DNA from: an uncultured Candidatus Sumerlaeota bacterium
GTDB lineage: Bacteria > Sumerlaeota > Sumerlaeia > MWCT01 > JAUWMI01
Direction: 5' to 3'
Assembly (NCBI GenBank): GCA_964630455.1
Contig: CAZVVA010000005.1
Location: 1 to 40,848, forward strand
Length of the DNA stretch: 40,848 nt
Both the position numbers and the translations under genes were made by a program. Positions 7,615 to 34,532 of this stretch are shown piece by piece (within the stretch, counting starts at the first letter, position 1; each line of letters begins with the position of its first letter). A model generated the notes under the pieces. The model was given only the letters and a program-made list of their open reading frames with translations, did no database searches and was not told where the DNA came from.

Positions 7615-7912
7615 GTTCTGTTATTTGCAACTTGTTTCTTCTGCTCTCAAACGCGAGAAGAGCGCTTCAGCCAAAGTCAGACGTAAAATACAGACGATCT
7701 TGAATGCAGTAAAGCAAAAAAACGTGGAAATATGCAAAATTTCCACACTAGCCGCACCAGCCGTCAGTTGCTTAAACGGTTGACATCTGCCACTGGGGTG
7801 CGCAAAATTATTAGCATTAAAGCAGACATATATTCAGGGCCGCTCAAGAATTTTCGTCAGTCCTTGCGCAGTGTGCCGCAGTATATAAACCGATCTCGAG
7901 ACGATTGTAGGA

Positions 7913-10900
7913 ATGGCGCTCCAGCAGTTTGTCCATTGTCACGTTCATAGTCACTTCAGCCTTAGCGATGGTGTTCCGTCAGTTTCCGCGTTGGTGCATA
8001 AGGCCGAGCAGCTAGGCATGAGCGCCATGGCACTGACGGATCATAACTCCCTCGGTGGGATTATTGAATTTACCCGAACGGCCCGCAGTTGCGGGCTTCA
8101 GCCAATCATCGGATGTGAACTCGACGTTCTTCCCTTTGAGACCTCCCATTATTCTGGCACAACACATCACCTTACCCTCCTCGTAGAGAGCGAAAAAGGC
8201 TATCGAAACCTCGTCTCTCTAATAACGCTGGCACATAAGAACGCTGGTACGGGCAAGCCTCATGTAGCGTTTAGCGACCTTGCGCGACATAGCACAGGGC
8301 TCCTGGCCCTGACAGGCTGCATCCGGGGTGAACTCGCACACCTGCTTCTCGGACGTAATCCTGAGGTAGCTGAGCGATACCTGGAGGCACTGGTGTGCGC
8401 GTTCGGGAAGGCAAATGTCTATTTCGAGCTTCAGGAAACAGGAGAACCGCAGCGAGGAGTTGTGAACAATCGCCTGATTCAGCTTTCACATTTCCTCGGC
8501 ATTCCAACCGTGGCTACGAATAACGTGCATCACCTGCATCCAGAAGAAGAACTGTGCTTCCAGTTTCTCAAGCGCACACCTGTCCGACCTGACGCGACAG
8601 TGGATGCTTTCTACCGCCCTGGTAAGGTCACCCGCCATTTAGCCAGCGAAACAGAGATGAGCGAGAAATTTGCTGCGCATCCGAGGGCGATCCAGGCAAC
8701 GGTGGAGATTGCACAGCGCTGTGGCTTTGTGCTCGAGCCACGTCCACCGCGTTTTCCGCTACTGGACTTTGATCGGGGACAGGACGCTGAGTCGTTTCTA
8801 TGGGATCTGGCATTTCGTGAAGCTACAAAAAAGTATGGTTTCCTCAGCAACGAGCTGAAAGACCGCTTGAACGAAGAATTCGACTACATCAAAAATAACG
8901 GCTTAATTCATTGCATCATCCTTCTTCAGAAACTCACGCAGTTTCTTCGTGAAAAGCACATCATAAAAGGGATCGGGAAGGGAAATATTGTCTCCAGCGT
9001 TGTTGCATACGTGCTGGGCCTTACAGACATTGATCCTCTTGAGTACCATATCAAGTTTCAGGGATTCATTGTAGGGGAAGCGTCCTCTCCCATGCTGACC
9101 ATTGAGGTGCCAACTAAGCACCTTACGACTATCACGACCTATCTGCAACAGCTGTATCCGGAGTCTTGCCTTGCAGCCGTGGGGAAGTACCAGTATTGGC
9201 ACAAAGGAACACTCTTGACGGAACTGTGCCTGTGGGCAAACGTGCCGAAGCACCGCATCGGGGGATTGCTGGCCTCACCTGCTTTCCAGTCGCAATCATC
9301 GTGCTCGCCTGGCTCGTTAGGGGATCTAGTGAGTCAAAATTCGCAGGGACTGGCGCTTACAACTCCGCGCCTCCTTTCCTGCATCATCGCCTCGCTGCAT
9401 CCGCGACCGCGCGCCTTGAAGCCAATGACAGGGCACCTGGTGATTTCCGGCGAGCATCTGAACGAGTTGGTGCCACGCGAGTTCAGCAACACTCCGCTCG
9501 GTGTGACTCAAATGGAAGCTGCATCCCTCGATCTACTTGGACTCCCTCATCTCAATATTATTGCTCGTCCCCTACTCGACATTCTTGACGATACGATATT
9601 CTGGATCCGCAACCAGGAAAACCGCTCGTTCAGCCTCGAAAAAATCCCTTTGAACGACGTGCCCACGTTTCAGCTCCTCAGCCGTGGACTCACGAACGGC
9701 ATTCCGCCGTTCCACTCCATAACGTTGAAATCTCTGCTGCGCGTTCATCGGCCCCGTAACATTCTTCAGCTTCTGAAGGTAAAAACCGAGAGCGCCCGGA
9801 ATCGAACAAAGACAAGCGCAAGCGATCATAATATTGTCCACCAGATTTCTGATTGTATCTTGACCTACTGGTGTGCGTATCTAAAAGCTCACTATCCGCT
9901 TTCCTTCATGACTGCCATCCTGACGAACTCGCATCAGCATCGCAAGCGATTCACTATTCTCCTCCGCGAAGCACGCTATATGGGGATAAGAATTCTGCTT
10001 CCCGACGTCAATCTCAGCAGCTATACGTTTACTCAGGAAGGCAAGGCCATCCGCACAGGCATGATGATTGTGCACGGCATGGGTGAAAAAGCCTTTCATG
10101 AGATCGAAACCGTCAGGAAAGGTGGAGCATTTAACGATCTGGAAGATTTGTGTAAGCGGACAGATCCAAAACTTCTGCATGCTCGTCTGATTGTCAGTAT
10201 GATTAAAACTGGTGTTTTGGATTCGTTTGGCACCAAGCGCTCACAGATGCTGCAAATGCTTCCGGGGCTGATCCAGACTACGCGTCAAAAGGAGGAGGGG
10301 GAGGAGGACCTTACGCCGTCTTTCTTTGATTTGCCCGGCGTTAAGGTACAACCAATCACAACCTCGGACGCCGGGACATCAGAGGTGGCAGAGCTCCCAC
10401 TTGAAACCCTTATCAAGTATGAAATTGACGCTGCCGGATACGCCATAACCTACGATCCATTGTCGCCGTATCAGGATCTTATCCGTAAAATACGGGCGAT
10501 CAGCCCGTATGGTATCATGCCAAAACTCGAAGGGACTTATCAATATCTGGTAGGTTACATTGACCACATTGATCGCGAGGGCCCCCTGGTGGGCAGCGAC
10601 ACCGCACTCATTCTTGACTTCGAAGGCTATCTGGTAAGCGTCCCACCAAGAGTTGCTAAACGCGCTGGACGGGCTCTTACGAGCACCCTACCTGTATTGA
10701 TCGGTGGACGCATTTGTGGCAACAAAGACCAGAGCATGATAAGAGCTCACTGCATCCATACCCTGGCGGAGGTGCAAAAAGCTGCGGAGGTGACTATAAA
10801 AATTGCGCTGAATCTGGACGGCGAGAATGTCAAAACACTGAAGATGCTCAAACATCTCGCGAAGACCTATCCAGGCAAAACAAAAATTGAGGTGAGAAAT

Positions 10901-11092
10901 TATTCCGGCAAAGGCAAGCGACTTCTCCACAAGCTCAATAGTACCTCAGTGTTCTTCTGTCCTCCTCTTCACAAAGAGCTTAAGAAAATGCTTCCTGAAA
11001 AGAACATCCTTATCCATACACTCCGGCCGCATCCCTCCAAAGATGACTTCCTTTCTTACCACCATGAGAATGTCACCAGGGATGTAAGCTGA
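7913..11092 (+). CDS. dnaE: DNA polymerase III alpha (DnaE/C-family) homolog with an apparently degenerate polymerase active site
   Basis: 1059-aa ORF. Family landmarks: PHP motifs FVHCHVHSHFSLSDG and ALTDHNSLGG; GKGNIVSSVVAYVLGLTDIDPLEY; LKAHYPLSFMTAILT; a clamp-motif-like PSFFDL; an OB-like tail. The expected SMPDxDxDF motif reads SSPMLTIEVP (nt 9083-9112). Confidence 0.8.
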   Translation: MALQQFVHCHVHSHFSLSDGVPSVSALVHKAEQLGMSAMALTDHNSLGGIIEFTRTARSCGLQPIIGCELDVLPFETSHYSGTTHHLTLLVESEKGYRNLVSLITLAHKNAGTGKPHVAFSDLARHSTGLLALTGCIRGELAHLLLGRNPEVAERYLEALVCAFGKANVYFELQETGEPQRGVVNNRLIQLSHFLGIPTVATNNVHHLHPEEELCFQFLKRTPVRPDATVDAFYRPGKVTRHLASETEMSEKFAAHPRAIQATVEIAQRCGFVLEPRPPRFPLLDFDRGQDAESFLWDLAFREATKKYGFLSNELKDRLNEEFDYIKNNGLIHCIILLQKLTQFLREKHIIKGIGKGNIVSSVVAYVLGLTDIDPLEYHIKFQGFIVGEASSPMLTIEVPTKHLTTITTYLQQLYPESCLAAVGKYQYWHKGTLLTELCLWANVPKHRIGGLLASPAFQSQSSCSPGSLGDLVSQNSQGLALTTPRLLSCIIASLHPRPRALKPMTGHLVISGEHLNELVPREFSNTPLGVTQMEAASLDLLGLPHLNIIARPLLDILDDTIFWIRNQENRSFSLEKIPLNDVPTFQLLSRGLTNGIPPFHSITLKSLLRVHRPRNILQLLKVKTESARNRTKTSASDHNIVHQISDCILTYWCAYLKAHYPLSFMTAILTNSHQHRKRFTILLREARYMGIRILLPDVNLSSYTFTQEGKAIRTGMMIVHGMGEKAFHEIETVRKGGAFNDLEDLCKRTDPKLLHARLIVSMIKTGVLDSFGTKRSQMLQMLPGLIQTTRQKEEGEEDLTPSFFDLPGVKVQPITTSDAGTSEVAELPLETLIKYEIDAAGYAITYDPLSPYQDLIRKIRAISPYGIMPKLEGTYQYLVGYIDHIDREGPLVGSDTALILDFEGYLVSVPPRVAKRAGRALTSTLPVLIGGRICGNKDQSMIRAHCIHTLAEVQKAAEVTIKIALNLDGENVKTLKMLKHLAKTYPGKTKIEVRNYSGKGKRLLHKLNSTSVFFCPPLHKELKKMLPEKNILIHTLRPHPSKDDFLSYHHENVTRDVS

Positions 11093-19723: not shown

Positions 19724-20487
19724 CTCATGCCACTACAAATTGAATGCCTATGCATCTGATAAGAGCCGCACAATAAATCCCGCTGCTCCACGTACAACCA
19801 TTCTGATGTACCAGAAGGTACGAACGTGTCAATTCTAAAATCATATCTTAATCAAAAGCATCCTTCCCAGTATATGCAAGCTCATAATGCCGTCAGAATG
19901 CTCAACAACTTTCAGGGCATCGACCTATTTGAAGTAATCACGGCAGTCCAGTGCACAAGGATAGAAACTAACAGTGGCAAATCGCGGTAATAGTGAAGCT
20001 TCGAGTTAAAGCAACGGCACCCCCCGATGTAAGTAGAAGAACGACCGCAAACCCGCATAACGACTTCCTGAAGGCTTGCAGCAACAAGGATGCCTGAGTA
20101 ATAAAAAAGCGCCTTCCTTTCCCTCTTATCGTAGATCAAACCTTGTCAACCTCTTATGTAATAGTATAGACGCGAAGGCGAAGGATTTGCTAAATTGGCT
20201 GGAAATTATGAGAATTTGCTTGAATCTTAGCAAAAGCTCTGCCAGACATAAGTAAACTGTTTTGATATTTGATGTGGCAAGTTTACGGTGAACCTCATTA
20301 AGTTTTCTTGCTTCTGAATCCCCATTGCTATAACAGAGATGTAACTCTGCATTACGGAAGCAAGTAACTTATACAGGAGCAATTTCACATCCTATTTCTC
20401 AAGCCCAGATAATCCTACAATAGGGAATAAGTAAATAGCACTCAAGACAATAGCAAAAGATTAATCCTTTTTCTTTAATCAGGAAAA

Positions 20488-21267
20488 ATGACCCTTAAAT
20501 CGCTAATCAATAAAATCGCATTCAAAGTAATCTGCTTATTCATTCCAAAGAGTGTGCATTATAAAGATATGATCCTTCCAGCAAACCACCTGCGCTTCTG
20601 TGGACCAGACTTTCTAGATGACGAATACTTCGTTACATCAGCTCTGGCAGAAGCTGATCGATTAGTTGAGCGTTTTAGGCTAACGACTAGTAGTCGTGTC
20701 TTGGATGTTGGGTGTGGTGTGGGCCGACTCCCTATTGGTATATTGGGTCGAATTGGAGAAATTCAACATTATCGAGGTGTTGATGTTAGCAAGAAATCTA
20801 TCCGATGGTGCCAACGCTATATATCCGGACGACATCCGAGCTTTCGGTTTATCCATATTGACGTGAAAAATCCCCGTTATAACCCACGCGGAAAAACAAT
20901 GGATATCGATTTTCGGCTCCCATTCGAGCACCAAGCATTTGACATCATCTATCTTTACTCGCTTTTCTCCCATATGACTACAGAAGAAATAAGGACGTAC
21001 TTAAACGAATTTCAACGCCTATTAGCGCCTTCGGGAAAAATTTTCTTGACTGCCTTCATCGCAGAAGGAGTACCCAAAATGACAATCAATCCGCAAGATT
21101 ATGTGAAGAACTGGAGTGGTGCATTACATTGCGTTCGGTATGACAAAGATTTTTTTGAGTCATTATTAGCTGAGAATAGTTTCAGCGTTGATTGTTTTAC
21201 TTACGAAAAGGAAATTGACAGACAGAGCGCTTTTTATATTTCCAGAAGGGGGAAAGATACTTCTTAG
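20488..21267 (+). CDS. Class I SAM-dependent methyltransferase
   Basis: 259-aa ORF. Motif I is RVLDVGCGVGRL; post-I/II is FDIIYLYSLFSHM. AT-rich codon usage. Confidence 0.8.
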   Translation: MTLKSLINKIAFKVICLFIPKSVHYKDMILPANHLRFCGPDFLDDEYFVTSALAEADRLVERFRLTTSSRVLDVGCGVGRLPIGILGRIGEIQHYRGVDVSKKSIRWCQRYISGRHPSFRFIHIDVKNPRYNPRGKTMDIDFRLPFEHQAFDIIYLYSLFSHMTTEEIRTYLNEFQRLLAPSGKIFLTAFIAEGVPKMTINPQDYVKNWSGALHCVRYDKDFFESLLAENSFSVDCFTYEKEIDRQSAFYISRRGKDTS

Positions 21268-21305
21268 CCTCCAACGGCAATGATCATTGAGCAAGGAGAG
21301 AACCT

Positions 21306-22445
21306 ATGAATTCAAATTCAAAAAAAGTTCTCGTCACAGGCGGAGCGGGATTTATTGGCAGTCATATTGTGGATAGGTTGGTTGACCAAGGTTATGAAGT
21401 AATCATATACGATAATCTCGATCCGCAAGTTCACAACGGGAAACCGGATTATTTAAACGAGAAAGCGGAGTTCATCGAAGGTGATGTTAGAGATAAAAAG
21501 AAACTGAAGAAAGTGCTCAGAGAAGTTACTATAGTCAGCCATCAGGCAGCTGTTGTTGGAGTGGGGCAATCTATGTATGAAATAGAAAGATACGTGGATG
21601 TGAATACGAAAGGTACGGCTGCATTACTCGACCTTATCGTTAATGAGAAAGATATCAAAATTGAAAAGCTGGTTGTTGCAAGTAGTATGAGCACCTATGG
21701 CGAAGGGGCGTACTATTGTAACAGATGCAAGGAGTACAAATATCCAAATCTTCGCGACGAAGCTCAAATGAAACGAGAAGAATGGGAACATAAATGTCCC
21801 AATTGCGGCACTACTTTAGAACCAAAGCCTACCTTGGAAACCAAGCCCCTGAATACAACAAGTATTTATGCTCAAACTAAAAAAGACCAGGAGGAGATGG
21901 CCCTGATGATTGGCCGTGCCTATGGTATCCCAACCGTTGCCCTTCGGTATTTCAATGTTTATGGCCCCAGACAAAGTCTCAATAATCCATATACCGGTGT
22001 TTGTGCAATCTTTAGCAGTCGGATCAAGAGTGATCATCCCCCATTGATTTATGAGGATGGAAATCAAATGAGAGACTTCATTTATGTCTCCGATATTGCC
22101 GGGGCTAATCAGCTAGCCATTGAAAAACCAGAGGCTGATATGAAGACCTTCAATGTGGGGACCGGAAATCCTAGAACCATCAAGGAAATAGCCCATCTTT
22201 TGATAAAGCTGTATGGAAAACAAGACGACTTAAAGCCCGAAACAGTTGCAAAATTTAGAGAAGGAGATATCAGGCATTGCTATGGCGATATCTCCAAGAT
22301 AAGTGGCATCCTTGGCTTTGAGCCCAAGGTTAGTTTCGAAGATGGAATGAAAAAGCTGATCGAATGGGGTAAAAAGCAGGAAGCAAAAGACAAGTTTGAA
22401 CAAGTTGAGACTGAGCTAAAAGAAAAGGGGTTGTTAAAGGGTTAG
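21306..22445 (+). CDS. NAD-dependent epimerase/dehydratase (extended SDR) with an inserted Cys4 zinc-ribbon
   Basis: 379-aa ORF: VLVTGGAGFIGSHIVDRL, ASSMSTYG, YAQTK. About 35 extra residues lie between the catalytic Ser and Tyr, containing CNRC...CPNC (nt ~21711-21821). Confidence 0.85.
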   Translation: MNSNSKKVLVTGGAGFIGSHIVDRLVDQGYEVIIYDNLDPQVHNGKPDYLNEKAEFIEGDVRDKKKLKKVLREVTIVSHQAAVVGVGQSMYEIERYVDVNTKGTAALLDLIVNEKDIKIEKLVVASSMSTYGEGAYYCNRCKEYKYPNLRDEAQMKREEWEHKCPNCGTTLEPKPTLETKPLNTTSIYAQTKKDQEEMALMIGRAYGIPTVALRYFNVYGPRQSLNNPYTGVCAIFSSRIKSDHPPLIYEDGNQMRDFIYVSDIAGANQLAIEKPEADMKTFNVGTGNPRTIKEIAHLLIKLYGKQDDLKPETVAKFREGDIRHCYGDISKISGILGFEPKVSFEDGMKKLIEWGKKQEAKDKFEQVETELKEKGLLKG

Positions 22446-22449
22446 AAAG

Positions 22450-23589
22450 ATGAAGATTTCGATGTTAGTATTCAATCTTTCAAGCAATTGTATAGTGAGA
22501 ACTTACCCCATTGCAAAAGTGTTAGAAAAGTATTGCGAAATAGAAGTTATCGGCCCTACCTCTGAGAACGGAATTTACGAGCCATACCGGAATGAATTCC
22601 AGTATAAAGGATATCCCGTAAATATACATGGTAGTATGGCTTCAAGGATAGTTAGCGGACTGCGGGCAGTTCGGGAAATGGTGAAATCTATTGAAGGCGA
22701 TATTATATACGCGTTCAAGCCAAGATTTACTAGCTTTGGCATTGGTTTATTCGCTAAGTACTTGAAGAAAATCCCGCTTATATTGGATATAGAAGACTGG
22801 GAGGCAGAGCCTTATCATAGTTCTTCCGTTGCTAAAAGGCTATGTTTGGTTAGAAACTTAACCAATCCCGATAGCGATCTATATAACAGATTACTGGAAC
22901 CGCTTACGAAGTTGGCGGATGAAATTACCGTAGTTTCTAACTTTTTACAAAATCGATTTGGCGGAATAAAATTGCCGCATGGGGCTGATTGCTCCTATTT
23001 CGATCCTGCTAAGTATGATCGCGAAAGCCTTCGAAAAAAATGGGGATTTGACTTCAACGACAAATTAATACTTTTTGCTGGTACCCCCTTCCCTCATAAG
23101 GGTTTGGAGGAGGTAATTAAATCTCTAGAAATCATAGGTTCAGATTTCATCCGGCTGGTAATTGTGGGAAAGCAAACAGATTATGCAGAAAAACTAAAAA
23201 AGCTCGCCGGAGATTCAATGATTTCCATAGCTCCCCAACCTCATTCAAGCATGCCGGAATTCTTGAAGCTTGCAGACCTTGTGGTATTGCCTCAAAGAAA
23301 AACTGCTTTTGCTGAAGCTCAAGTTCCGGGAAAAGTTTTTGAAGCCATGGCAATGGCAAAACCTATAATTGCCACCAATGTGTCTGATTTGCCCGAGATT
23401 CTAAATGGTTGCGGTTGGATTGTTGAATCGGAAAATCCTAAGCAATTGGCGGAGACTATCCAGTATGTTTTAAATAATGGCGATGAAGCTGAAGAAATGG
23501 GCTGGAGGGCTCGGCAAAAGTGTATAGAAAAATATAGTTGGGATTCGATGGAAAGAACGTTGCTAAAGGTTTTTAAGAAATATGAGTGA
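22450..23589 (+). CDS. Glycosyltransferase family 4 (GT-B)
   Basis: 379-aa ORF. The C-terminal EX7E-type region is VLPQRKTAFAEAQVPGKVFEAMAMAKPIIATNVSDLPEIL. It starts 4 nt after the SDR stop. Confidence 0.8.
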   Translation: MKISMLVFNLSSNCIVRTYPIAKVLEKYCEIEVIGPTSENGIYEPYRNEFQYKGYPVNIHGSMASRIVSGLRAVREMVKSIEGDIIYAFKPRFTSFGIGLFAKYLKKIPLILDIEDWEAEPYHSSSVAKRLCLVRNLTNPDSDLYNRLLEPLTKLADEITVVSNFLQNRFGGIKLPHGADCSYFDPAKYDRESLRKKWGFDFNDKLILFAGTPFPHKGLEEVIKSLEIIGSDFIRLVIVGKQTDYAEKLKKLAGDSMISIAPQPHSSMPEFLKLADLVVLPQRKTAFAEAQVPGKVFEAMAMAKPIIATNVSDLPEILNGCGWIVESENPKQLAETIQYVLNNGDEAEEMGWRARQKCIEKYSWDSMERTLLKVFKKYE

Positions 23590-23970
23590 ATTCAAAGGGC
23601 ATGAGGTCCAAGGATTTAAAAATCTTGTGTGGGCGCGATGCTTTTCCCATCCTGGCGAATCGAGCATTCCTTATTAATTACTGCAAGCAGGCAAATCTCG
23701 TAAAAGAGCCTTCCTCATTGTTCAGCTATGTGTAGTTTTTCATAACATTGCATCGTGTTTCAGCTATAACCAAGCAATAGACCAGTGCTGCCCCAATCAC
23801 CAGCTATGGAATGCAGATGACCCTGCAGAGCTAATGCGTCTGCACTCCTTTATCACGAATATCAATTTAGTTCAAAGAAACGTACTCCTATTCTGATCTA
23901 CAGATGAGTCGAGCATGTGAGTGCCAAAATTATACTTAAGTCAAAAGCATTCCTGCGATTGTGTTAATAC

Positions 23971-24486
23971 TCAAAATGACCTTAGCAGGCCCAGTAATTT
24001 CTCTGCTGTTCGCTCCCAGGTGAACTGTTGGGCGCGTGACAGTCCCTTTTTAATCAGAGTCTGCCGCAGTGACTGGTCGTTCAGCAGTTGAACGATAGCA
24101 TTGGCAATATCTTTAACATCATAGGGATTGACTTGAACAGCAGCGTCTTCAACAATTTCCGGAAGCGACGACGTATTTGAGGTAATGACCGGAGTGCCGC
24201 AAGCCATTGCCTCGATAGCGGGTAAGCCAAAGCCTTCAAGCAGCGATGGAAACACAAAGCCACGGGCAAGCTTATAGAGTGCAGGTACGTCGTCATCTTT
24301 AACGTAGCCCAGAAACTTGACGTGACATGTAAGACCGAGATTGACGCCAGACCCAGTGCATAGGGATAGAGATTGACAGCCCCAAGCTGCGGTGATAATA
24401 AACCCTCGAGTTAAGCCAGCGGCGATAGGCACAGACGAATGGTCATGAGCCGCAATTAATGTTTTCTTCGAGTTAATTAAAAACAA
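23971..24486 (-). pseudogene. Truncated GT4 glycosyltransferase (C-terminal domain only)
   Basis: 171-aa ORF with a clear GT4 C-terminal half (FVFPSLLEGFGLPAIEAMACGTPVITSNTSSLPEIV). There is no room for the N-terminal Rossmann domain, because the plus-strand flippase starts 38 nt away. Composition resembles the flanking core rather than the surrounding AT-rich genes. Confidence 0.65.
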
Positions 24487-24524
24487 ACTGTCCTTACCCT
24501 AAGCAGTTCTGCTGAATTAATCAA

Positions 24525-26003
24525 ATGTCACAAAAAAAAGACAAAACTTTGCGCACTATTTTCAGTCTTTCTTTTTCGATGAATATAAACAGTTTTTGTC
24601 TCTTTGTCGCAGGATTAATAATTAACAGAATAATTGGACCCACCTTAGCAGGAATATTGAACTTTCTGAATCTTGTCTATTCCTACTGCAGTTATGCCTA
24701 CGCACCATTTCAGCTTTCCCTTTCCAGAGATTATCCGCAACTCATTGGCAGAAATGAACAGGAAAAGGCAAGCCTCCTATATAACAGTACGTATAGTTTA
24801 ACAATTATGACCGCTTCGGTTATCAGTATCGGGCTTCTCGTCTGTTCACTTTTTTTCCGCCATAATAAATTCCTACAGTATGGTTTTATCGCATTATCAA
24901 TAATACATCTGGGGCGAGGGACAAATTTTTTCCTGACAACGGCTGCACAAGTAACAAAAAATTTCCGAATGCTATCCGCTTATTATATTTTATTCGGCCT
25001 ATCTAATTTATTTATTGTGACCTTTTCTACATATTTATTCAGCTTTTATGGCACGATATTTGCCCTCGCACTTGTGCAATTTACTGCTTGTATTATTTTT
25101 TCGATTAAACTCAAGGTCACGGTAATGGTAAGAAGAGCAATTTTAAATTTGAAGCCTTCTTTTATTAGAGGTTTACCTTTACTAATTTTTACTTTTGTTT
25201 TTATGAACTTGATGCAGGTTGACCGTCTCCTGATAGCTATCTTTCTTGATTTCACGGAACTTGGTTATTATGGTCTGGCAGTGTCAGCGATCGGTTTCGC
25301 ACTCCTTATTCCAAACAGTATTTGGTCTGTAATATACCCAGAATTTATGGAGATGGGTGCAGCAAATAAAGACAACAGGGAAAAGATTAAAGGCGTTGCA
25401 AAACATAATACTATTAACTCGGGCGCATTTATAATATTCCCGCTGCTATTAATGTCGCTGGCGGTCCCTTTGGTTATCAACAACGTATTGCCGGCATTTC
25501 AACCAAGCATAATTGTTGCACAAATCTTACTATTCGCGCTTTTTTTTCTGGGTGTATATCAGATGTACTATTATGTTTTTATCCTGTATGAGCAGTTACC
25601 TCGTATTATAATGCTAACGTCTTTCTGTCTGCTCATTGACATTATTTTGAACTATTCATTCATAAGAAGAGGGCTTGGAATCAATGGCGTGGCTCTTGGC
25701 ACATCCGTTGCATTTTTCCTGTTCTGTTTTGCTACAATTGTCGAAGGAGGCAAAATTATAAATCAAAAACTCGCTGAGACAGCCATTTTATTGCTCAAGC
25801 TCCTATCTCCCTTTTGCTATGCGATAGCGATCTTTTTGCTAATTCATAAAATCAACCTTCTGGAACACAGATCTCTGTTGAATGATGTCAAATCGTTTTT
25901 ACTGGCAAGTGTCATTTCTTTCTTCCTGTATTCACCTGTTTTATTGTATCTAAATTATAGGTCCAAAATCATTACGAGGCTTGTAAAGTCAATATTTCAA
26001 TAA
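24525..26003 (+). CDS. Polysaccharide flippase-like MOP/Wzx-family membrane protein
   Basis: 492-aa ORF, almost entirely hydrophobic (~12-14 predicted helices). The size and glycan-locus context are typical of Wzx. The call rests on topology and context, not on a specific motif. Confidence 0.6.
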   Translation: MSQKKDKTLRTIFSLSFSMNINSFCLFVAGLIINRIIGPTLAGILNFLNLVYSYCSYAYAPFQLSLSRDYPQLIGRNEQEKASLLYNSTYSLTIMTASVISIGLLVCSLFFRHNKFLQYGFIALSIIHLGRGTNFFLTTAAQVTKNFRMLSAYYILFGLSNLFIVTFSTYLFSFYGTIFALALVQFTACIIFSIKLKVTVMVRRAILNLKPSFIRGLPLLIFTFVFMNLMQVDRLLIAIFLDFTELGYYGLAVSAIGFALLIPNSIWSVIYPEFMEMGAANKDNREKIKGVAKHNTINSGAFIIFPLLLMSLAVPLVINNVLPAFQPSIIVAQILLFALFFLGVYQMYYYVFILYEQLPRIIMLTSFCLLIDIILNYSFIRRGLGINGVALGTSVAFFLFCFATIVEGGKIINQKLAETAILLLKLLSPFCYAIAIFLLIHKINLLEHRSLLNDVKSFLLASVISFFLYSPVLLYLNYRSKIITRLVKSIFQ

Positions 26004-26464
26004 GAATCTCACGGGCAACACGATAAATAAACAGAGGATTTTTGGGGAAAATCGAAGCATTTTAATCCTTTTGGTGGGAAGCCTGGGTGTGATCTTGGTT
26101 ACAGAAGCTGGGCCGTGCCTTTGGTGAATAACTATGCGTAAGGGCATAAAGGTCACAGACAGAAACTTGGTGACAATGATGAAAAGACGAATTCTAATTG
26201 CAGCAATCATCGTACTGGCAGGTTTGGTGCTATGTGTTTGGCCGGAGCTGATGCTTCAGCCAGCAGCGCAGGAGCAAAGCATCCGGTAGAGCAATAACCT
26301 CGGCGATGTGGTCACCCGGCAAATGTGGATCATATGCGGCTCCCTGTGAAGTTGCAGTAGAGCAGATAGGAGAGTACCCGAAATAGCACAAAACCCCAAC
26401 AAGCGGATATTAATTATCGAACGCAATCCTCCAATGGGCCTTTTTTTGAAAATCCAATGAGTAA

Positions 26465-27334
26465 ATGAATATGCGAAAAATACTGTTAGCAGCGTACAAA
26501 ATTTGCCTGAAGATTTTTTCAGGACGTAGAATTGGAACATTTTATCCGATAGCAGTTGCCCATAAGTTTGTAATCTCTCTTCTGAAATCAAGGTTCACTG
26601 AAGTTGAGGGACATAAAATGTTCCTAGATTCGAAAGATACTCTTGGGCTTTCAATTAACGAATTTTACGAATCTCTCGAAACGGAGATTGTGAAGAAAGA
26701 AATTAAAAAAGGTGATGTTGCCGTAGATATTGGAGCTAACATTGGATATTATACTTTGATCTTTGCAAAACTTGTGGGTGACGAGGGGAAAGTTTTTGCC
26801 TTTGAACCAGATCCCACTAGTTTTGCTTTGCTTAAGAAGAATGTAGAAATAAACCGTTATCAAAACGTTATATTGGTGCAGAAGGCAGTCTCAAATGAAA
26901 CTGGTAAGATTAGACTGTATCTATGCGATGACAATCTCGCAGACCACAGAATATACAACTCACACGATGGTCGTAAGTCTATCGAAATCGAAGCCATACG
27001 ATTAGATGATTACTTCAAAGGTTACACAGGCAAGATTGATTTCATTAAAATGGACATACAAGGAGCTGAGGGGGACGCACTTCAAGGGATGTCGCTTCTT
27101 TTGCAAAAAAACAAAAATCTCAAGATGATTACAGAGTTCGAGCCCGTTGCGCTTAAAAGGTTTGGCATGGAACCAGAGGAATACTTAAAACTACTCGTAA
27201 AGCATGGCTTCGCATTGTATCATATAAATATGCAAGAAAAGAGAATAGAGCCAGCTGACATCGTCAAATTGCTAAAAACGTATACTCCTGAAATTGGGAA
27301 TTATGCGAATTTATTATGTCTAAGAGACGAATAG
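26465..27334 (+). CDS. FkbM-family SAM-dependent methyltransferase
   Basis: 289-aa ORF: VAVDIGANIGYYTLIFA, VFAFEPDP, IDFIKMDIQGAEGDAL. An alternative ATG lies at 26471. Confidence 0.85.
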   Translation: MNMRKILLAAYKICLKIFSGRRIGTFYPIAVAHKFVISLLKSRFTEVEGHKMFLDSKDTLGLSINEFYESLETEIVKKEIKKGDVAVDIGANIGYYTLIFAKLVGDEGKVFAFEPDPTSFALLKKNVEINRYQNVILVQKAVSNETGKIRLYLCDDNLADHRIYNSHDGRKSIEIEAIRLDDYFKGYTGKIDFIKMDIQGAEGDALQGMSLLLQKNKNLKMITEFEPVALKRFGMEPEEYLKLLVKHGFALYHINMQEKRIEPADIVKLLKTYTPEIGNYANLLCLRDE

Positions 27335-27760
27335 TTTTTGCTTCTTGGTTTACCATACAAAGAAAGATGGCCTGGGGCCTTCCGGCGAGCTTTGAAGTCC
27401 CCCTGTTCCATTGAGCAATGCCAACATCAGATAACACCAAGACGAGTCGGTGGGAAGGAACGTCGGTTTTATTCCTTGCGGAATTTCTCCCTTCTCTCAT
27501 CAAGCACCAATGCAGACGAGCCAGACCATAAAGAAGATTTTTTGCGAGGGTCGTGATCGTAGGACTGTGAAAGGCAGCCCAAGCCAAAACAATGAGAGTA
27601 ACTGACGCGTATATTTTGTAAAATAAGTTCCTATTTCTTTATATAGTGACGCTATTTGCGTTTGAAACCTTCAATACTCGCTGGAAGCATAAGCACACGG
27701 ACGAGTTTCCCTTCACGGCCACCTGCATAAAATGGGGGCAAATGTTTTGCGACTTGCTGT

Positions 27761-28540
27761 ATGAGCGACAAGAAGATGAAATTATTCAAAAGATTACGAT
27801 TGATTTCAAGAAAACTAAATATACTGATTCATTTAAGACTATATCCGCATATTTTCTTTACTTTTAATCCCTTCAAAATATACGAATTTGAAGAGCTCAA
27901 AAGAGGAATCACATTTTCAAAAGATGATGTGATTCTTGATCTGGGCTGTGGGCACGGTCTCCATACTCTACTTCTCGCTGAGAAGTGCAAGAAGGCAATT
28001 GGAACAGATATATCAGAAGAATGTATAAAATTTGCGAAGCTCCTGTCCCACTACATGAGAGGGGCCATTGACACTGAGTTCTATTGCGCGAAGCTTCAGG
28101 AGGCAAGATTTGAAGATGAATTCTTTGACAAGATCTACTGCGCTTGCGTGCTCGAACACGTGCCTGACTATGTTGAGGTACTAAGAGAGGCGCATCGAAT
28201 TTTGAAGAAAGATGGACAAATGATATTCTCTGTTGATAGCTTAGAAGCCATTGAAGATAAAGAAGCCATCGAAAAGCACAAGAAAGAACATTTTGTGGAA
28301 AATTACTTCAGCAGCGAGGAATTGCAAAAACTCTTAGAGGAAATAAATTTTAAAAAAATTACTATCTATCCTATTTTTCGGAGCGACTTTGCCAGAAATC
28401 TCTTTATTAAGGGAATTAATAACGAATTTCACTACGGTCGCCTGCCGTCACTTTTGGCATATATCCTTCTTAGATATAAAGAATCTCATTGTGCCGAGAA
28501 AGACAAAGGTATATTTCTAATTGTAAAATGCAGCAAATAG
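27761..28540 (+). CDS. Class I SAM-dependent methyltransferase (Methyltransf_11-like)
   Basis: 259-aa ORF: VILDLGCGHGLHTLLLA, DISEECIKFA, FDKIYCACVLEHVPD, LKKDGQMIFSV. Confidence 0.85.
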   Translation: MSDKKMKLFKRLRLISRKLNILIHLRLYPHIFFTFNPFKIYEFEELKRGITFSKDDVILDLGCGHGLHTLLLAEKCKKAIGTDISEECIKFAKLLSHYMRGAIDTEFYCAKLQEARFEDEFFDKIYCACVLEHVPDYVEVLREAHRILKKDGQMIFSVDSLEAIEDKEAIEKHKKEHFVENYFSSEELQKLLEEINFKKITIYPIFRSDFARNLFIKGINNEFHYGRLPSLLAYILLRYKESHCAEKDKGIFLIVKCSK

Positions 28541-28699
28541 ATATAGCAGCCACTGTAGGTTAATTTCTTTCTCTGACATGGCACGATAAAGCACAGCGGG
28601 AGAGATCTTCCCTCTCGTTTTAATTCAAGACGCGGGCATGAGCGAATTTTCCCTGGCGATGAAACAAGTACCGGGCTCTCTGATACGAAGGCATAAAGT

Positions 28700-29032
28700 G
28701 TGCTTCTGCCCTGGAATTTCGAGCCACACTTTCGCGTGCAACTGCCTGGGCTTTTCAGCAATGCATTAGAACTACTGATCGCTGCGTCTTTTGGTCCAGA
28801 TAAGGCATCTATGCATTCTTTTCCTCAAAACCGCGCTACTTTAAGGTTAGAAGGTTTTGGGGCATACGCGAAGGAGTGGTTGACTGAGTTCAATGGTGTT
28901 TCCAAATACTATTTCCCTCTCTATCTGAAAGACATGGAATTCAGACACAGGCATAGACGCCAAGATTTATTTGACCATTTGGTTAAATGCCTCTGCAATT
29001 TGGGATGGGATCTTTTACAATTGCCAAAATGA
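28700..29032 (+). mobile_element. Relic of an IS1595-family (ISXO2-like DDE) transposase, C-terminal tail only
   Basis: The ORF translation ...LRLEGFGAYAKEWLTEFNGVSKYYFPLYLKDMEFRHRHRRQDLFDHLV (core nt ~28808-28996) matches the characteristic IS1595 C-terminus (N.iEgfWs..Kr.l..f.Gvs...f.lYlkE.eFRfNhR). No DDE core and no inverted repeats are recognisable. Confidence 0.6.
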
Positions 29033-30231
29033 GAATCTTATTTTTCAGTGCTAAAGTTCCACATTCACGAAGTAAAACTGCCGGACAAGTGGAAATATAT
29101 AGGTACATTAATGGCCTGGTAGCAAAAGGGCTTCAGGTAGATCTGGTCAGTACCAGTGCGCCTGGTGAGGAAGTATTCTTTGAAGAAATGCGGCAAATCT
29201 GCAGGAGAGTTTACGCGGTAAGGAGAAGCGTAACCTATCTGCAGAAGGCTAAGCAGGCGCTGGACTGGCTAATTCACGCGTGCCGAGGGCCCCTGGAACA
29301 CAGACCCGCGGTAATTTTTGTAAACAACCTGATTCGCGAAGGCGACTACGACATCGTACAGGTGGAGTTCGCCGAGGCAGGAAGGCATATCAGGAGACAT
29401 GGCAAGACCAAGCTGGTGCTGGATGCTATTGATATTGAGATCAAGCCTGCACTGAGACGATGGCAAAGGGAAAAAAGGATGTGGCCAAAACTCTGGGGCG
29501 GGGTTTGGTATTTATACTGGCGCTGGAAAGAGCCCAGAATCTATCGCCAATATGATATGATTTTTACTCGCTCAGATTACGACAGGGAATACATTTTGAG
29601 GATCGAATCTAACCTCAGAGTGCGGGTGCTACCACATCTTGTTCCCATCGAGAAAAGTGAAAACGACAACGAGGGAGGAAAAGAACAGAACAGCATAATT
29701 TTTATGGGAGCATTCTCGCGAGATGTTAATATTCAATCGGCGCGTTTTATAGTTAAGCAGATACTACCCCGCCTGAAAAAGAAGCTCCAAGTAGTCAAGG
29801 TCTATCTCGTGGGCAGTGATCCTCCTCAAGAATTTAGCGAATGGGCTAAGCAGGACACCAACATCGTGGTTACCGGATACGTGGACGATATATATGGCTA
29901 TTACAAAAAGGCGCAGGTGATGGTAGCGCCGATGTTCATTGGTGGAGGAATTATGACTAAAATAATTGAGGCGATGGCATCCGGACTTCCTGTTGTCACT
30001 ACGGCTATAGGAAACGAAGGAGTAGGAGCAAAGGACGGCGAGCAGATATTGCTGGCGGAGACAGCAGAAGAGTTCGCCGAAAAAATCCATATGCTTCTCC
30101 AGAACGATGAATTGCGCTGCAAGATTGGCGAGCGGGCACGTGAGTTTGCTCTCAACAGGTTTGAGTTCAACAAAGTGATTGACATGCTGGAAGGATACTA
30201 TCGAGAACTACTCGCACGAGGATGGCGATGA
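29029..30231 (+). CDS. Glycosyltransferase family 4 (GT-B)
   Basis: The ORF track opens at 28987, but the GT4-typical N-terminus MRILFFSAKVPH begins at 29029. The upstream 14 codons overlap the transposase relic. The C-terminus has VMVAPMFIGGGIMTKIIEAMASGLPVVTTAIGNEG. Confidence 0.8.
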   Translation: MRILFFSAKVPHSRSKTAGQVEIYRYINGLVAKGLQVDLVSTSAPGEEVFFEEMRQICRRVYAVRRSVTYLQKAKQALDWLIHACRGPLEHRPAVIFVNNLIREGDYDIVQVEFAEAGRHIRRHGKTKLVLDAIDIEIKPALRRWQREKRMWPKLWGGVWYLYWRWKEPRIYRQYDMIFTRSDYDREYILRIESNLRVRVLPHLVPIEKSENDNEGGKEQNSIIFMGAFSRDVNIQSARFIVKQILPRLKKKLQVVKVYLVGSDPPQEFSEWAKQDTNIVVTGYVDDIYGYYKKAQVMVAPMFIGGGIMTKIIEAMASGLPVVTTAIGNEGVGAKDGEQILLAETAEEFAEKIHMLLQNDELRCKIGERAREFALNRFEFNKVIDMLEGYYRELLARGWR

Positions 30232-31178
30232 ATAATCCACTAGTATATCTAATTGTACTAAGCTGGAATCAGAAACAAGATACCCTTATGTGTTTGGCAA
30301 GTGTTTCGCGGGTAACATACCCTAATTTTCGGGTTGTTCTGGTGGATAACGCTTCAGTGGATGGTACCGCCGAGGAGGTTCGCGAAAAATTTCCCGGGGT
30401 TAAAGTAATCCGTAACAATAAGAACCTGGGGTTTACCGGCGGAAATATAAAAGGTGCGGAATATGTCTGTGCGCAGGGAGCCGATTATATAATGCTTCTG
30501 AATAATGACGTAGAAGTTGCGCCCGATTTCCTTGAGCCACTAATCAAAGTGGCAGAAACCGATGCTGCAATTGGTGCCATCGCTCCTTTAATACACTTCT
30601 TCGAACCCCGTGATCGCGTCCAGTCTGCCGGATGTAATAGGAAATGGCTTGGGTTGAACAATCAGAAGCTTTTTTACGGAAAAAGCGATAAGAATATCCC
30701 CGAACTTCTGGAATCGGATATGGTCTCGGGGGCAGCTTTATGTATCAAGCGCAAGGTAATCGAAGAGGTGGGATTCCTGGATAATATTTATTTCGCTTAC
30801 AATGAAGATATGGATCTGTGCTATCGGATAAGAAAAGCCGGTTACCGGATAGTCACTGTAAAGGCATCCCGCATATGGCATAAGATTTCCGCTTCTACAG
30901 GTGGTTATAGGAATCCAGCGAATCAGTACTTAATGGCGCGGGGGGCGGCGATTTTCATGCGCAAATATGGCAGGTGGTGGGAAAAACTCCTCTTTTTCCC
31001 CCTAGCATTCACGGCTAGCACGATTGTTATTCTCAGAGATATTTGGTACGGTCTTGCCCGTGCGGATTTGCCCAGGTATGAGGGATATATTGATGGTTGG
31101 TTCTTAAAGGCTGTGGACGATGAGAAATTGTCAGCCATAAAATCAAGGCATAAGAAAGAAGTATCATTTATCCAGTAG
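30222..31178 (+). CDS. Glycosyltransferase family 2 (rhamnosyltransferase-like)
   Basis: 318-aa ORF: YLIVLSWNQ, VVLVDNASVDGT, LLNNDVEV, SGAALCIKR, YNEDMDLCYRIRKAGYRI. It overlaps the GT4 stop by 10 nt (ATGGCGATGA). Confidence 0.85.
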   Translation: MAMNNPLVYLIVLSWNQKQDTLMCLASVSRVTYPNFRVVLVDNASVDGTAEEVREKFPGVKVIRNNKNLGFTGGNIKGAEYVCAQGADYIMLLNNDVEVAPDFLEPLIKVAETDAAIGAIAPLIHFFEPRDRVQSAGCNRKWLGLNNQKLFYGKSDKNIPELLESDMVSGAALCIKRKVIEEVGFLDNIYFAYNEDMDLCYRIRKAGYRIVTVKASRIWHKISASTGGYRNPANQYLMARGAAIFMRKYGRWWEKLLFFPLAFTASTIVILRDIWYGLARADLPRYEGYIDGWFLKAVDDEKLSAIKSRHKKEVSFIQ

Positions 31179-31515
31179 AGTCTACGTTGTATTAAGCTGG
31201 CAGAATTATTGTCTGGACTTGCGTCTAGCGATTGAACTGTTGGGCGATACCATTGTCCAACCCCTCATGCTGCTCAGCGCTTACCGCCCCCTACCTTCTT
31301 ACACAGTACAGGTTTCTTCTTGCCTTTAGAGGCCCGATTCGATAGATTTAGAATCTTAGCGGCTTCTTTGTTTTCTGATTCACCATTTCAAAAATTTACC
31401 GTTTGACCAGATTCAAGAAGGCGTCTCAATTTTCAACTAGATTTGGCAGGCTCTTCGTATGTCAATGCTTGACCTTTTGAAAAACGAGTAATGAACCTTA
31501 CTGAACGGATTAAGC

Positions 31516-32379
31516 ATGATTACAGTTGCTGATATTTTAAGAAATATTGAGATTCTAAGAAATCTGAATCGAATCCAAAAAAATCGCAGGTTGTGGCTTA
31601 AATTTAGATTTCTTAGTCTTTTTTCTAATATGGAGTATTTCAGATTTCGTTGTAACTTATGCGGGCAGTTTTCTACTTCTCCTTTGATTGAAATTTGCGC
31701 AAGAGAATCTGCGTCCTGCTATCATTGTGGTTCTAGCTTAAGATATAGATCAATCATTCATATATTATCATTAGAATTATTTGGAGAAAGTCTGATACTT
31801 CAAGATTTTCCTAAGGCCGAGATCGTGGGCATTGGCATGAGCGATCCAGACGTATATGCCATCCCCTTAAGCCGAAGACTTTCTTATACAAATACTTTCT
31901 ATCATAAGGAACCCAAGGTTGATATAACTTCAATAGAACCTCAAATGAAGAGTTCTTGCGATTTCATAATTTCAAGTGAAGTCTTTGAGCATGTTCCACC
32001 GCCCATCGAATTAGCGTTTCAAAATATATACAGTTTATTAAAACCTGGTGGGGTGTGTGTCTTTACTGTTCCGTGTACAAAAGACGTTTCGACCAAAGAA
32101 CATTTCCCTGATTTGCATGATTATAAGCTAGTCAAAAAATGGGGAAAGACTATGTTGATTAATAAAACAAAGGATGGAGTTGACCAAATCTTTGACAACT
32201 TGATATTTCATGGTGGCAAAGGTTCAACGCTGGAAATGCGTGTTTTTTCTGAATCATCTTTGATTGAAAATATTTCCAAAGCTAGCTTTAAGGACATAGA
32301 GATTCATAAATGTCATAAACCTGAGTATGGTATTATTTGGAATATAACCGAATCTCTTCCAATATCAATGAGACGGTAG
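31516..32379 (+). CDS. Putative SAM-dependent methyltransferase with an N-terminal Cys4 zinc-ribbon
   Basis: 287-aa ORF. CNLC...CYHC (nt 31651-31728) is followed by an MTase-like core (IVGIGMSD, DFIISSEVFEHVPPP, LLKPGGVCVFTVP). Motif I is atypical. The start may instead be the Met at codon 39. Confidence 0.6.
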   Translation: MITVADILRNIEILRNLNRIQKNRRLWLKFRFLSLFSNMEYFRFRCNLCGQFSTSPLIEICARESASCYHCGSSLRYRSIIHILSLELFGESLILQDFPKAEIVGIGMSDPDVYAIPLSRRLSYTNTFYHKEPKVDITSIEPQMKSSCDFIISSEVFEHVPPPIELAFQNIYSLLKPGGVCVFTVPCTKDVSTKEHFPDLHDYKLVKKWGKTMLINKTKDGVDQIFDNLIFHGGKGSTLEMRVFSESSLIENISKASFKDIEIHKCHKPEYGIIWNITESLPISMRR

Positions 32380-32434
32380 AAGCCTAACATTGTAATCGGC
32401 TTGACGGCTTGCGTCTGGTGACGATTAAAGCGTT

Positions 32435-32760
32435 TTGTGCATTTCCGAAAGTCTTGACTTAAATCCAGAAGTTTGTCTTATCCTCGTCACCCACCAGGTT
32501 AGCTCTGCGGTAAGCCAGGAGACTGAAATAAACTTTGCAAATCGAAAACGAAACGACTCGGCTACGAAGCCCTTCTGCCTGGTCGCTGGTGGGAGAAACT
32601 CATCTTCTTCCCGCTGGCCTTTGCTGCCACTACGGTAGTGCTTCTCAGGGAAAGTCTGCATGGTCATGCGCGCGCAATCTTACCCAGATATAAGGGATAT
32701 ATTGATGGCTGGCTTTTTAAAACCTTTGAATGCGAAAAGAGTGAAAACACTCATTGTTAA
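32435..32760 (+). pseudogene. Orphan, frameshifted 3' remnant of a GT2 glycosyltransferase paralogous to 30222-31178
   Basis: 32581-32760 translates GRWWEKLIFFPLAFAATTVVLLRESLHGHARAILPRYKGYIDGWLFK...*, versus GRWWEKLLFFPLAFTASTIVILRDIWYGLARADLPRYEGYIDGWFLK... in the intact gene. Upstream, THQVSSAV (32489-32512) parallels WHKISAST but in another frame. The spacing is 89 nt where 90 would be expected. Confidence 0.75.
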
Positions 32761-32785
32761 CTGTCAGTAGGGAGAATTTCTTCGC

Positions 32786-32884
32786 CTCCACGGGCAGGAT
32801 GCCCGTGCCACCTCCTTATTAAAATTCCGAGATATCTAAGCCCTGGAGATGTTCAAAATATTCATTTTATTAGAGGCCCTAGGT
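32786..32884. repeat. Structured intergenic repeat family, copy C (modules 2+3, hairpin interior deleted)
   Basis: Matches copy A 261-381. The CACGGGCA (32789-32796) / TGCCCGTG (32800-32807) stem is retained, but the 22-nt interior present in copies A and B is replaced by a GGA loop. Confidence 0.75.
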
Positions 32885-33205
32885 AAAAATAATTACCGCT
32901 CACTGGGATCGTCTACCACGTTTTGATGGGCAGGGAAAGACAGTTGGAGAAAACTCCTAAGCAACTCATAGCAGGTTTCAAATGGCGCAGACATGTCTTG
33001 CAAAATACGGATTTCCAGAGCTGCCATATCTCCACCCATGGGAACCTCTCTCTACTCCTGCGGCGCCATCGGTGGAAGTATTATCTATTAAGACAACATG
33101 CCAATTTGGATAAGTTATTTTTCTCTGAACTCTCAAGAAATCCTAGGGTATCTTCTTTTCAGTTCCAGGTTAACGTGACTATATAAACCAGAGGTTTCTC
33201 CATAA

Positions 33206-34468: not shown

Positions 34469-34532
34469 GCGCCTTGCACCTCTTTATTTCTACCTGATCA
34501 AGCCATCACATTTGCCCGAGCTTATCCCTTAT

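Follow-up and report, generated by a model that had tools for sequence, protein, structure and literature searches.

This study concerns a gene that resembles a replicative DNA polymerase but whose product is predicted to be unable to polymerise DNA. It was found in a stretch of 40,848 nucleotides from an uncultured Candidatus Sumerlaeota bacterium (contig CAZVVA010000005.1), referred to here as the window. The gene is a complete open reading frame (ORF) at 7913-11092 of the forward strand, which encodes 1059 amino acids in an intact frame and is flanked by a divergent gene for a PMT_2-type membrane glycosyltransferase and a convergent GH31-like gene. The product is a DnaE1-type homologue of the DNA polymerase III (Pol III) alpha subunit, and the alpha fold is kept overall. 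We refer to this protein and to the family of its relatives as dead alpha.

Domain layout of the ORF

A sequence-only reading of this DNA had described the ORF as a DnaE-family gene with a PHP domain. This assignment agrees with the Pfam matches, which comprise PHP (PF02811, 6.4e-42, residues 8-175), DNA_pol3_alpha (1e-17) and HHH_6 (1.5e-21), while the Pfam fingers model is covered at positions 2-69 of 166 only. Among the NCBIfam models, those for DnaE1 rank at the top; their scores of 481 and 469 bits fall well short of the respective cut-offs (1260 and 1002 bits), and no DnaE equivalog cut-off is reached. The superfamily model TIGR00594 is the only one passed (443 versus 434 bits). The DnaE2 model PRK05672 gives 283 bits against a cut-off of 939, which is below the DnaE1 models.

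An AlphaFold 2 (AF2) model built with 38 relatives reached a mean predicted local distance difference test score (pLDDT) of 85.7 and a predicted template modelling (TM) score of 0.77. With Foldseek, this model could be superposed over its full length on the alpha subunit of Taq (3e0d, TM 0.69) and on DnaE1 of M. tuberculosis (7pu7, TM 0.68), and also on E. coli alpha. Oligonucleotide-binding (OB) folds were among the partial matches, and together with the AF2 model these agree with the OB-like tail that had been read from the sequence.

With regard to DnaE1 proteins of known structure (Taq 2hpi/3e0d, E. coli 2hnh/5fku, M. tuberculosis 7pu7), dead alpha shows the same order of PHP, palm, thumb, fingers flanks, helix-hairpin-helix (HhH)/beta-binding domain, OB fold and C-terminal domain. 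The best NCBIfam models, the TM scores of 0.6-0.7 and a clamp-like motif at the homologous site point in the same direction. In contrast, dead alpha has no catalytic Asp triad and no equivalent of E. coli K553, carries GKGN in place of GRGS, and lacks about 100 residues of the fingers core. The NCBI annotation pipeline PGAP labels orthologues 'PHP domain-containing protein', other pipelines call them 'DNA polymerase III subunit alpha', and both names are misleading for this protein. The positions of the features are given in Table 1.

Table 1. Features of the dead alpha gene and of its upstream region, in window coordinates
Feature	Position	Strand	Basis
Dead DnaE1-type Pol III alpha homologue, 1059 aa	7913..11092	+	Pfam, NCBIfam, AF2, Foldseek, dN/dS
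PHP domain, aa ~6-280, ligand pattern HHDHEHCNH (8/9)	7928..8752	+	Pfam, ligand table
M394-L395-T396, palm strand at the E. coli D401/D403 position	9092..9100	+	Alignments; strand in AF2 model
H546-L547-N548, palm strand at the E. coli K553/D555 position	9548..9556	+	Alignments; strand in AF2 model
Junction of the ~100-aa fingers-core deletion, aa ~626-645	9788..9847	+	Alignments; Pfam fingers model 2-69/166
Helix-hairpin-helix/beta-binding domain, aa 691-779	9983..10249	+	HHH_6 1.5e-21
TPSFFDL, clamp-binding-like motif, aa 801-807	10313..10333	+	Aligned with the canonical internal Q-x-S-L-F motif
OB-fold domain, aa ~876-950	10538..10762	+	Beta-rich in AF2 model; partial OB matches in Foldseek
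DnaE1-type C-terminal domain, aa ~951-1036, family motif VFFCPPL..LKK.LPE	10763..11020	+	Alignment with DnaE1
Sigma-70-like promoter candidate, TTGACA-17-CAAAAT	7780..7808	+	Consensus scan match only

Loss of the polymerase active site and of the fingers core

The catalytic columns were counted from the HMMER alignment to the Taq chain, in which the motif S-M-P-D-I-D-T-D-F contains D463 and D465, and the motif L-L-K-M-D-F-L-G-L contains D618. Besides the HMMER alignments to chains of the Protein Data Bank, a MAFFT alignment of 39 relatives with nine canonical enzymes and an hhalign profile-profile alignment were used. The motifs read from the sequence were found at the positions claimed for them, namely GKGN at 355-358, SSPMLTIEV at 391-399 (nt 9083-9109) and PSFFDL at 802-807. 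Four independent alignments concur in placing M394 and T396 on the columns of Taq D463 and D465, which correspond to E. coli D401 and D403, so that the proposed replacement of both palm aspartates is correct. The column of the third catalytic Asp (Taq D618, E. coli D555) is occupied by N548, in the segment LPHLN-IIAR. This Asp had been reported as lost through a change of TQFD to TQME; the loss is real, but it concerns the K-x-D-F-L-G-L column, and the Asp of TQFD is non-catalytic. The column of E. coli K553 holds H546. The profile-profile alignment, with a probability of 100%, gave catalytic columns identical to those of HMMER and MAFFT. The changes of GRGS to GKGN and of NKSH to NIVH, both noted earlier, are also seen in the alignments, and the HAAG motif of the palm is lost as well.

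The largest lesion had been overlooked in the sequence-only reading. Between residues ~626 and ~645, the fingers core is reduced to 14 residues, compared with 116-127 in canonical enzymes, and the missing block of about 100 residues is the one that holds YRPGP, YQEQ, LRRAMGKK and GFNKSH in those enzymes. We take this block to contain the arginines that contact the triphosphate in the Taq ternary complex. Both palm strands persist in the AF2 model (residues 395-399 and 546-551), and residues 440-520, which had been called unalignable, form the thumb; they are modelled as helices, with pLDDT below 50 only at 461-465.

As judged from these alignments, the two-metal polymerase site is abolished by four replacements (D401 to M394, D403 to T396, D555 to N548 and K553 to H546, in E. 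coli numbering). The product of ORF 7913-11092 is thus expected to be unable to polymerise DNA.

A discrete family maintained by selection

A first homology search returned 39 related proteins of ~1040-1090 residues, with 500-2340 bits and 33-96% identity, separated by a score gap from ordinary DnaE1 proteins, which reached at most 393 bits. All 39 lack the three Asps and carry the fingers deletion. A contig scan of one genome per GTDB species yielded 17 family loci, every one of which is titled Sumerlaeota or BRC1. The Asp triad is missing from all full-length Sumerlaeota loci (16/16), whose fingers core measures 7-18 residues, while non-Sumerlaeota loci in the same alignment show DDD in 51 of 51 cases and a fingers core of 116-127 residues in all 50 that reach the fingers. 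A profile search of 1.84 billion representative proteins, counted as clusters at the 50% identity level, gave among its best 150 about 53 that are dead and short-fingered, about 97 with DDD and full fingers, and none that are mixed. Seventeen further full-length members came from a metagenome scan.

In total, the triple loss and the deletion occur together in all of about 90 relatives, and about 150 canonical enzymes all have the three Asps and full fingers, with no intermediates. The boundaries of the deletion are identical across the family. Members that bear a name are labelled Sumerlaeota or BRC1, or otherwise only 'bacterium' with no phylum given; the most divergent, GC-rich subgroup is likewise labelled Sumerlaeota (P0156, P0274). 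Dead alpha was found in every Sumerlaeota subgroup sampled. The dead state is family-wide and discrete, and it is kept across Sumerlaeota.

The strength of selection was estimated from the ORF of the window and an orthologue of 81% identity (L007). At a synonymous divergence (dS) of 1.28, the ratio of nonsynonymous to synonymous rates (dN/dS) was 0.08, with similar values in every domain, including the dead palm, and 0.03 in the HhH domain. Six syntenic neighbour genes gave 0.09-0.18. The purifying selection on dead alpha is strong, as tight as that on the neighbouring housekeeping enzymes.

Loss of catalytic residues combined with an internal deletion is also what would be expected of a decaying pseudogene or an assembly artefact. 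Nevertheless, about 90 sequences, which come from independent assemblies, all have an intact frame of similar length (~1000-1140 residues), the fold is predicted with confidence, the deletion boundaries are shared, and dN/dS is 0.08. This explanation is refuted by the dN/dS value and by the family-wide alignments, and we give it practically no chance. The proposal of an inactivated DnaE homologue has therefore stood up, as the catalytic carboxylates and the nucleotide-binding part of the fingers are lost, every relative examined shares the substitutions, and the gene is under purifying selection.

A separate observation is that the profile search also returned several DnaE proteins of the canonical kind (P0148, P0170, P0188, P0192, P0199 and P0256) in which 470-580 residues replace the fingers core of ~118 residues. 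Such segments are consistent with inteins or large insertions.

Retained putative binding modules and DnaE1 ancestry

Within the family, the HhH/beta-binding domain (51%) and the fingers flanks (44-50%) show the highest mean pairwise identity, and the junction of the fingers deletion shows the lowest (14%). The palm shows the largest relative drop, with 34-38% in the family versus 55-57% in canonical enzymes, a comparison that is confounded by setting within-phylum against cross-phylum sequences.

The segment TPSFFDL aligns with QIGLF, QLSLF and QVSLF of canonical DnaE1 proteins and lies in a loop (794-821) that is disordered in the AF2 model. The Gln is missing. Of 85 aligned family members, made non-redundant, about 60 have x-x-x-[LMF]-F at this site, some of them as a perfect QLQLF. 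By its sequence, TPSFFDL is a clamp-binding-like motif. The sequence-only reading had listed the PHP, clamp-binding and OB modules as kept. This holds for the clamp-like motif and the OB fold, and for the HhH domain as well, but not for the PHP site, which is not conserved across the family.

The family profile aligns up to the extreme C-terminus of DnaE1 (profile positions 641-1028 on residues 745-1132 of P0147), and it stops at the OB fold in DnaE2-type proteins. Its scores are 650-690 bits against DnaE1 and 200-370 bits against DnaE2. Because the profile aligns with the C-terminal domain of DnaE1, which is lacking in DnaE2-type proteins, the ancestor was a DnaE1. Summed BLAST and profile scores favour a DnaE of the Bacillota/Clostridia type as the origin of the family, only marginally. 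The homologous C-terminal domain presumably binds the tau subunit in E. coli and Taq alpha.

DnaE2/ImuC is comparable to dead alpha as a C-family homologue that is non-essential, has about the same length (~1050 residues) and often carries a degenerate PHP domain. In contrast to dead alpha, DnaE2 keeps the triad and the full fingers and ends at the OB fold, so that the C-terminal domain of dead alpha is extra.

The PHP site and a possible nuclease role

The PHP ligand pattern of the protein of the window is HHDHEHCNH, which amounts to eight of nine ligands with the substitution D204N. All nine are present in P0002 and in the 81%-identical orthologue. Most relatives have only 1-7, the range in the family being 1-9. 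In the GC-rich A3 subgroup, with the consensus 'FVHLGARSE...LALxDVMTLAG', both H-x-H and the histidine of TDH are lost. In the HMMER alignment, the Taq chain 3e0d has Asn at the column of this Asn ligand and at one other PHP ligand. We assume that 3e0d, with these Asn ligands, is an engineered exonuclease-deficient variant.

These data bear on the possibility that dead alpha is a clamp-tethered PHP nuclease, in which the polymerase core would serve as a DNA-binding platform and the PHP domain as a 3'-5' exonuclease or phosphoesterase, for proofreading in trans or end-processing. The eight or nine ligands in the protein of the window and its close orthologue fit this idea, as does the position of the PHP domain among the better-conserved regions of the family. 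A precedent is found in the PolX1 proteins, which combine an inactivated polymerase site with a conserved PHP site, according to the part of a recent polymerase survey that describes them (PMC12926913). However, the same survey gives HHDHEH[C/H]DH as the motif of an active PHP exonuclease and, in the wording concerned, treats any deviation as inactive; by this criterion, the protein of the window, with eight of nine ligands, counts as inactive (PMC12926913). The eighth ligand is Asn rather than Asp, as in 3e0d. Most members keep only 1-7 ligands, and since the GC-rich subgroup has lost nearly all of its ligands while remaining full-length and conserved, PHP catalysis is not the common function of the family. 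With the PHP ligands eroded in this way, there is no enzymatic site common to all members. A nuclease role is conceivable for the lineage of the window only, and we regard it as unlikely. PolX1 and PolX-like proteins resemble dead alpha in that polymerase activity is lost and a PHP-containing protein is maintained; the difference is that the PHP site, as described in the survey, is a conserved element of PolX (PMC12926913), whereas it is eroded in most members of dead alpha.

Other C-family genes in Sumerlaeota

Intact C-family genes were met in two metagenome-assembled genomes (MAGs) of Sumerlaeota. In SSF23 (Sumerlaeaceae, GCA_019695055.1, JAIBAT010000141.1), a distance of 33 nt separates dead alpha from a convergently oriented gene for a DnaE2-type protein of 1189 residues, which is intact (PDIDLDL, KMDLLG, GRGS and full fingers). 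It belongs to a cassette in which a Y-family (IMS) gene of 390 codons precedes the DnaE2-type gene (L087 13217-17965, equal to L015 9217-13965). The MAG Zod_Metabat.321 (L076 4481-6643) carries a partial DnaE2-type gene whose catalytic site is intact and whose contig ends before the fingers. The protein encoded by this partial gene also shows a degenerate PHP domain with a tandem peptide repeat, RERGTKGVRGLP, in ~4 copies. Owing to the intact DnaE2-type gene on the GCA_019695055.1 contig, dead alpha is not the sole C-family gene in at least one genome.

The SSF23 arrangement would fit a role like that of ImuB, as an accessory of an error-prone mutasome, in which dead alpha would connect the clamp with a polymerase of the DnaE2 type and with a Y-family protein in damage tolerance. 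Points in favour are the distance of 33 nt from a cassette whose active site is intact and the two features that parallel ImuB, namely the dead polymerase and the clamp motif. Nevertheless, the adjacency occurs in one of about 46 family loci, and the genes are convergent, so that they do not form an operon. Dead alpha resembles DnaE1 and has retained a C-terminal domain that is missing from DnaE2, it is present in all Sumerlaeota subgroups sampled, as against only two encounters with DnaE2-type genes, and no SOS-box-like palindrome was recognised by inspection of the conserved upstream region (7615-7912). A mutasome role of this kind appears improbable. The likeness to ImuB is a functional analogy: ImuB, too, is a polymerase homologue without its catalytic carboxylates that still has a clamp-binding motif and persists as a subunit with no catalytic role. 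The two folds, Y-family in ImuB and C-family in dead alpha, are unrelated, and ImuB is encoded with imuA and dnaE2, whereas dead alpha has no conserved partner.

A canonical replicative dnaE1 of Sumerlaeota was not retrieved in homology and profile searches made without taxon restriction. The nearest canonical matches to the ORF and to the family profiles are from Bacillota or Proteobacteria, as judged by name or synteny, and others could not be assigned. Entries for dnaE or K02337 are absent from the supplements of the 2026 polymerase survey and of two papers on Sumerlaeota, as are genomes of Sumerlaeota. According to the relevant statement in that survey of 3070 genomes, at least one DnaE1 or DnaE3 is present in every bacterial species (PMC12926913). 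Given this rule, and because DNA synthesis would be physically impossible for dead alpha, we infer that the phylum has a canonical dnaE1.

The failure to retrieve this gene would also fit the idea that dead alpha is the divergent replicase of the phylum, still a polymerase but with non-canonical catalytic residues. Two residues could be cited in its favour: E398, since most members keep an acidic residue at the third position of the PDxDxD strand, which is non-catalytic, and the nearly invariant D/E540 of TQMD/E. Against it stand the replacement of all three metal ligands and of K553 by variable, mostly non-acidic residues, the physical absence of the fingers core with its four motifs, the lost HAAG, the drop of conservation in the palm, which is the largest relative to canonical enzymes, and the C-family genes with intact sites in Sumerlaeota MAGs. 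This makes the idea extremely unlikely.

Very unlikely as well, if slightly less so, is that dead alpha is the only DnaE1-lineage gene of the phylum, replication being carried out by a PolC-like or DnaE2-like enzyme and the former replicase being reduced to a tau- and clamp-binding scaffold. If true, bacteria would have an equivalent of the half of eukaryotic Pol epsilon whose polymerase is inactive, and it would break a rule drawn from ~2000 and 3070 complete genomes, that every bacterium has an active DnaE1 or DnaE3.

A non-catalytic scaffold as the most likely explanation

The explanation that we favour, with a probability of roughly 0.6, is that dead alpha is a non-catalytic scaffold with several binding functions. 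The HhH domain would still bind duplex DNA, the OB fold would bind single-stranded DNA, TPSFFDL would bind the sliding clamp, and the C-terminal domain might bind the tau subunit of the clamp loader. Such a protein would take up or arrange the sites where polymerases dock, be it at the replisome or at repair intermediates, and would itself make no DNA. This role would be analogous to that of other dead polymerase modules, such as ImuB and the inactive half of Pol epsilon.

Several points weigh against this proposal. Binding to the clamp, to tau and to DNA is assigned solely through the homology of motifs and domains. The clamp motif is degenerate in the P0013/P0016-type subgroup (VQMEFEF), and about 25 members have none, so that clamp binding is possibly not universal. 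The PHP site is nearly intact in the lineage of the window (8/9, and 9/9 in P0002), where it may have a nuclease role. The gene neighbourhoods point to no functional partner, their contexts being housekeeping and variable. Finally, the term 'paralog' of the sequence-only reading is only partly justified: intact DnaE2-type genes do exist in two Sumerlaeota MAGs, but as the canonical dnaE1 of the phylum was not retrieved, an extra paralogue is not proven.

With regard to novelty, the sequence-only reading knew of no described class of this kind. Two surveys of C-family polymerases, from 2013 and 2026, name four groups, DnaE1-3 and PolC, and in the portions that deal with inactivation they consider the PHP site only and not the polymerase site (PMC3919608, PMC12926913). 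Sumerlaeota genomes are not in the dataset of the 2026 survey (PMC12926913). Within the searchable text of the literature, text searches returned nothing on an inactive DnaE class, nor on a C-family counterpart of ImuB. An inactivated polymerase homologue is known from the bacterial X family, namely PolX1, as the survey describes it (PMC12926913). Dead alpha is an inactivated polymerase homologue, here the first in family C.

Inactivated modules of the B family, in archaeal PolB and in the eukaryotic B family, survive as scaffolds. The archaeal inactivated PolB and the C-terminal half of Pol epsilon have a full-size fold with a disrupted site and play structural roles in the replisome. They differ from dead alpha in polymerase family and in domain of life, and dead alpha has in addition lost part of its fingers.

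Dead alpha would add a fifth kind of protein to the C family, and it would show that the alpha scaffold, with its HhH domain, clamp motif, OB fold and C-terminal domain, serves a separate purpose on which selection can act. It could serve as a natural separation-of-function variant, which may reveal what alpha does in the replisome besides synthesis.

Upstream region, gene neighbourhood and window context

The divergent promoter region upstream of the ORF, 7615-7912, shows unusual conservation in orthologous loci, also when the coding sequence has a dS of 1.28. The conserved blocks are TTAAACGGTTGACATCT and GGTATATAAACCGATC..GAGACGATTGTAGGAATG, of which the former, the -35 block, is invariant in five orthologous loci, including L007.

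Clustering of the ORFs within 4 kb of 39 loci gave no operon partners beyond local synteny. The syntenic genes encode a GFO/IDH/MocA oxidoreductase, PMT_2 glycosyltransferases, a cyclophilin and, in one subgroup, an FtsB-like coiled-coil protein. In this subgroup (L003 9533-9958; L017, L023, L094-L096 and L103), a conserved gene of ~125 codons lies directly upstream on the same strand. Its product, which begins with a basic N-terminus and further contains one predicted membrane helix and a coiled-coil segment (LKKENE.LREEN.RLREQLKRT), resembles FtsB/DivIC, with no Pfam hit on record. In loci of the Sumerlaeaceae type (L002 13212-13835; L011, L012, L014 and L019), a gene for a cyclophilin-type peptidyl-prolyl isomerase is located immediately downstream on the same strand, and is possibly co-transcribed with dead alpha.

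An origin from a defence system or a phage was considered and rejected, as there was no PADLOC hit and the PHROG matches were to phage C-family polymerases only.

Elsewhere in the window, the region 20000-34500 has a GC content of 40-44%, compared with ~50% in the remainder. Its genes encode several S-adenosylmethionine-dependent methyltransferases, GT1, GT2 and GT4 glycosyltransferases, an epimerase/dehydratase and a Polysacc_synt_3 flippase, as in a cluster of the polysaccharide or O-antigen type. This region looks like a variable surface-glycan island, which was possibly acquired horizontally.

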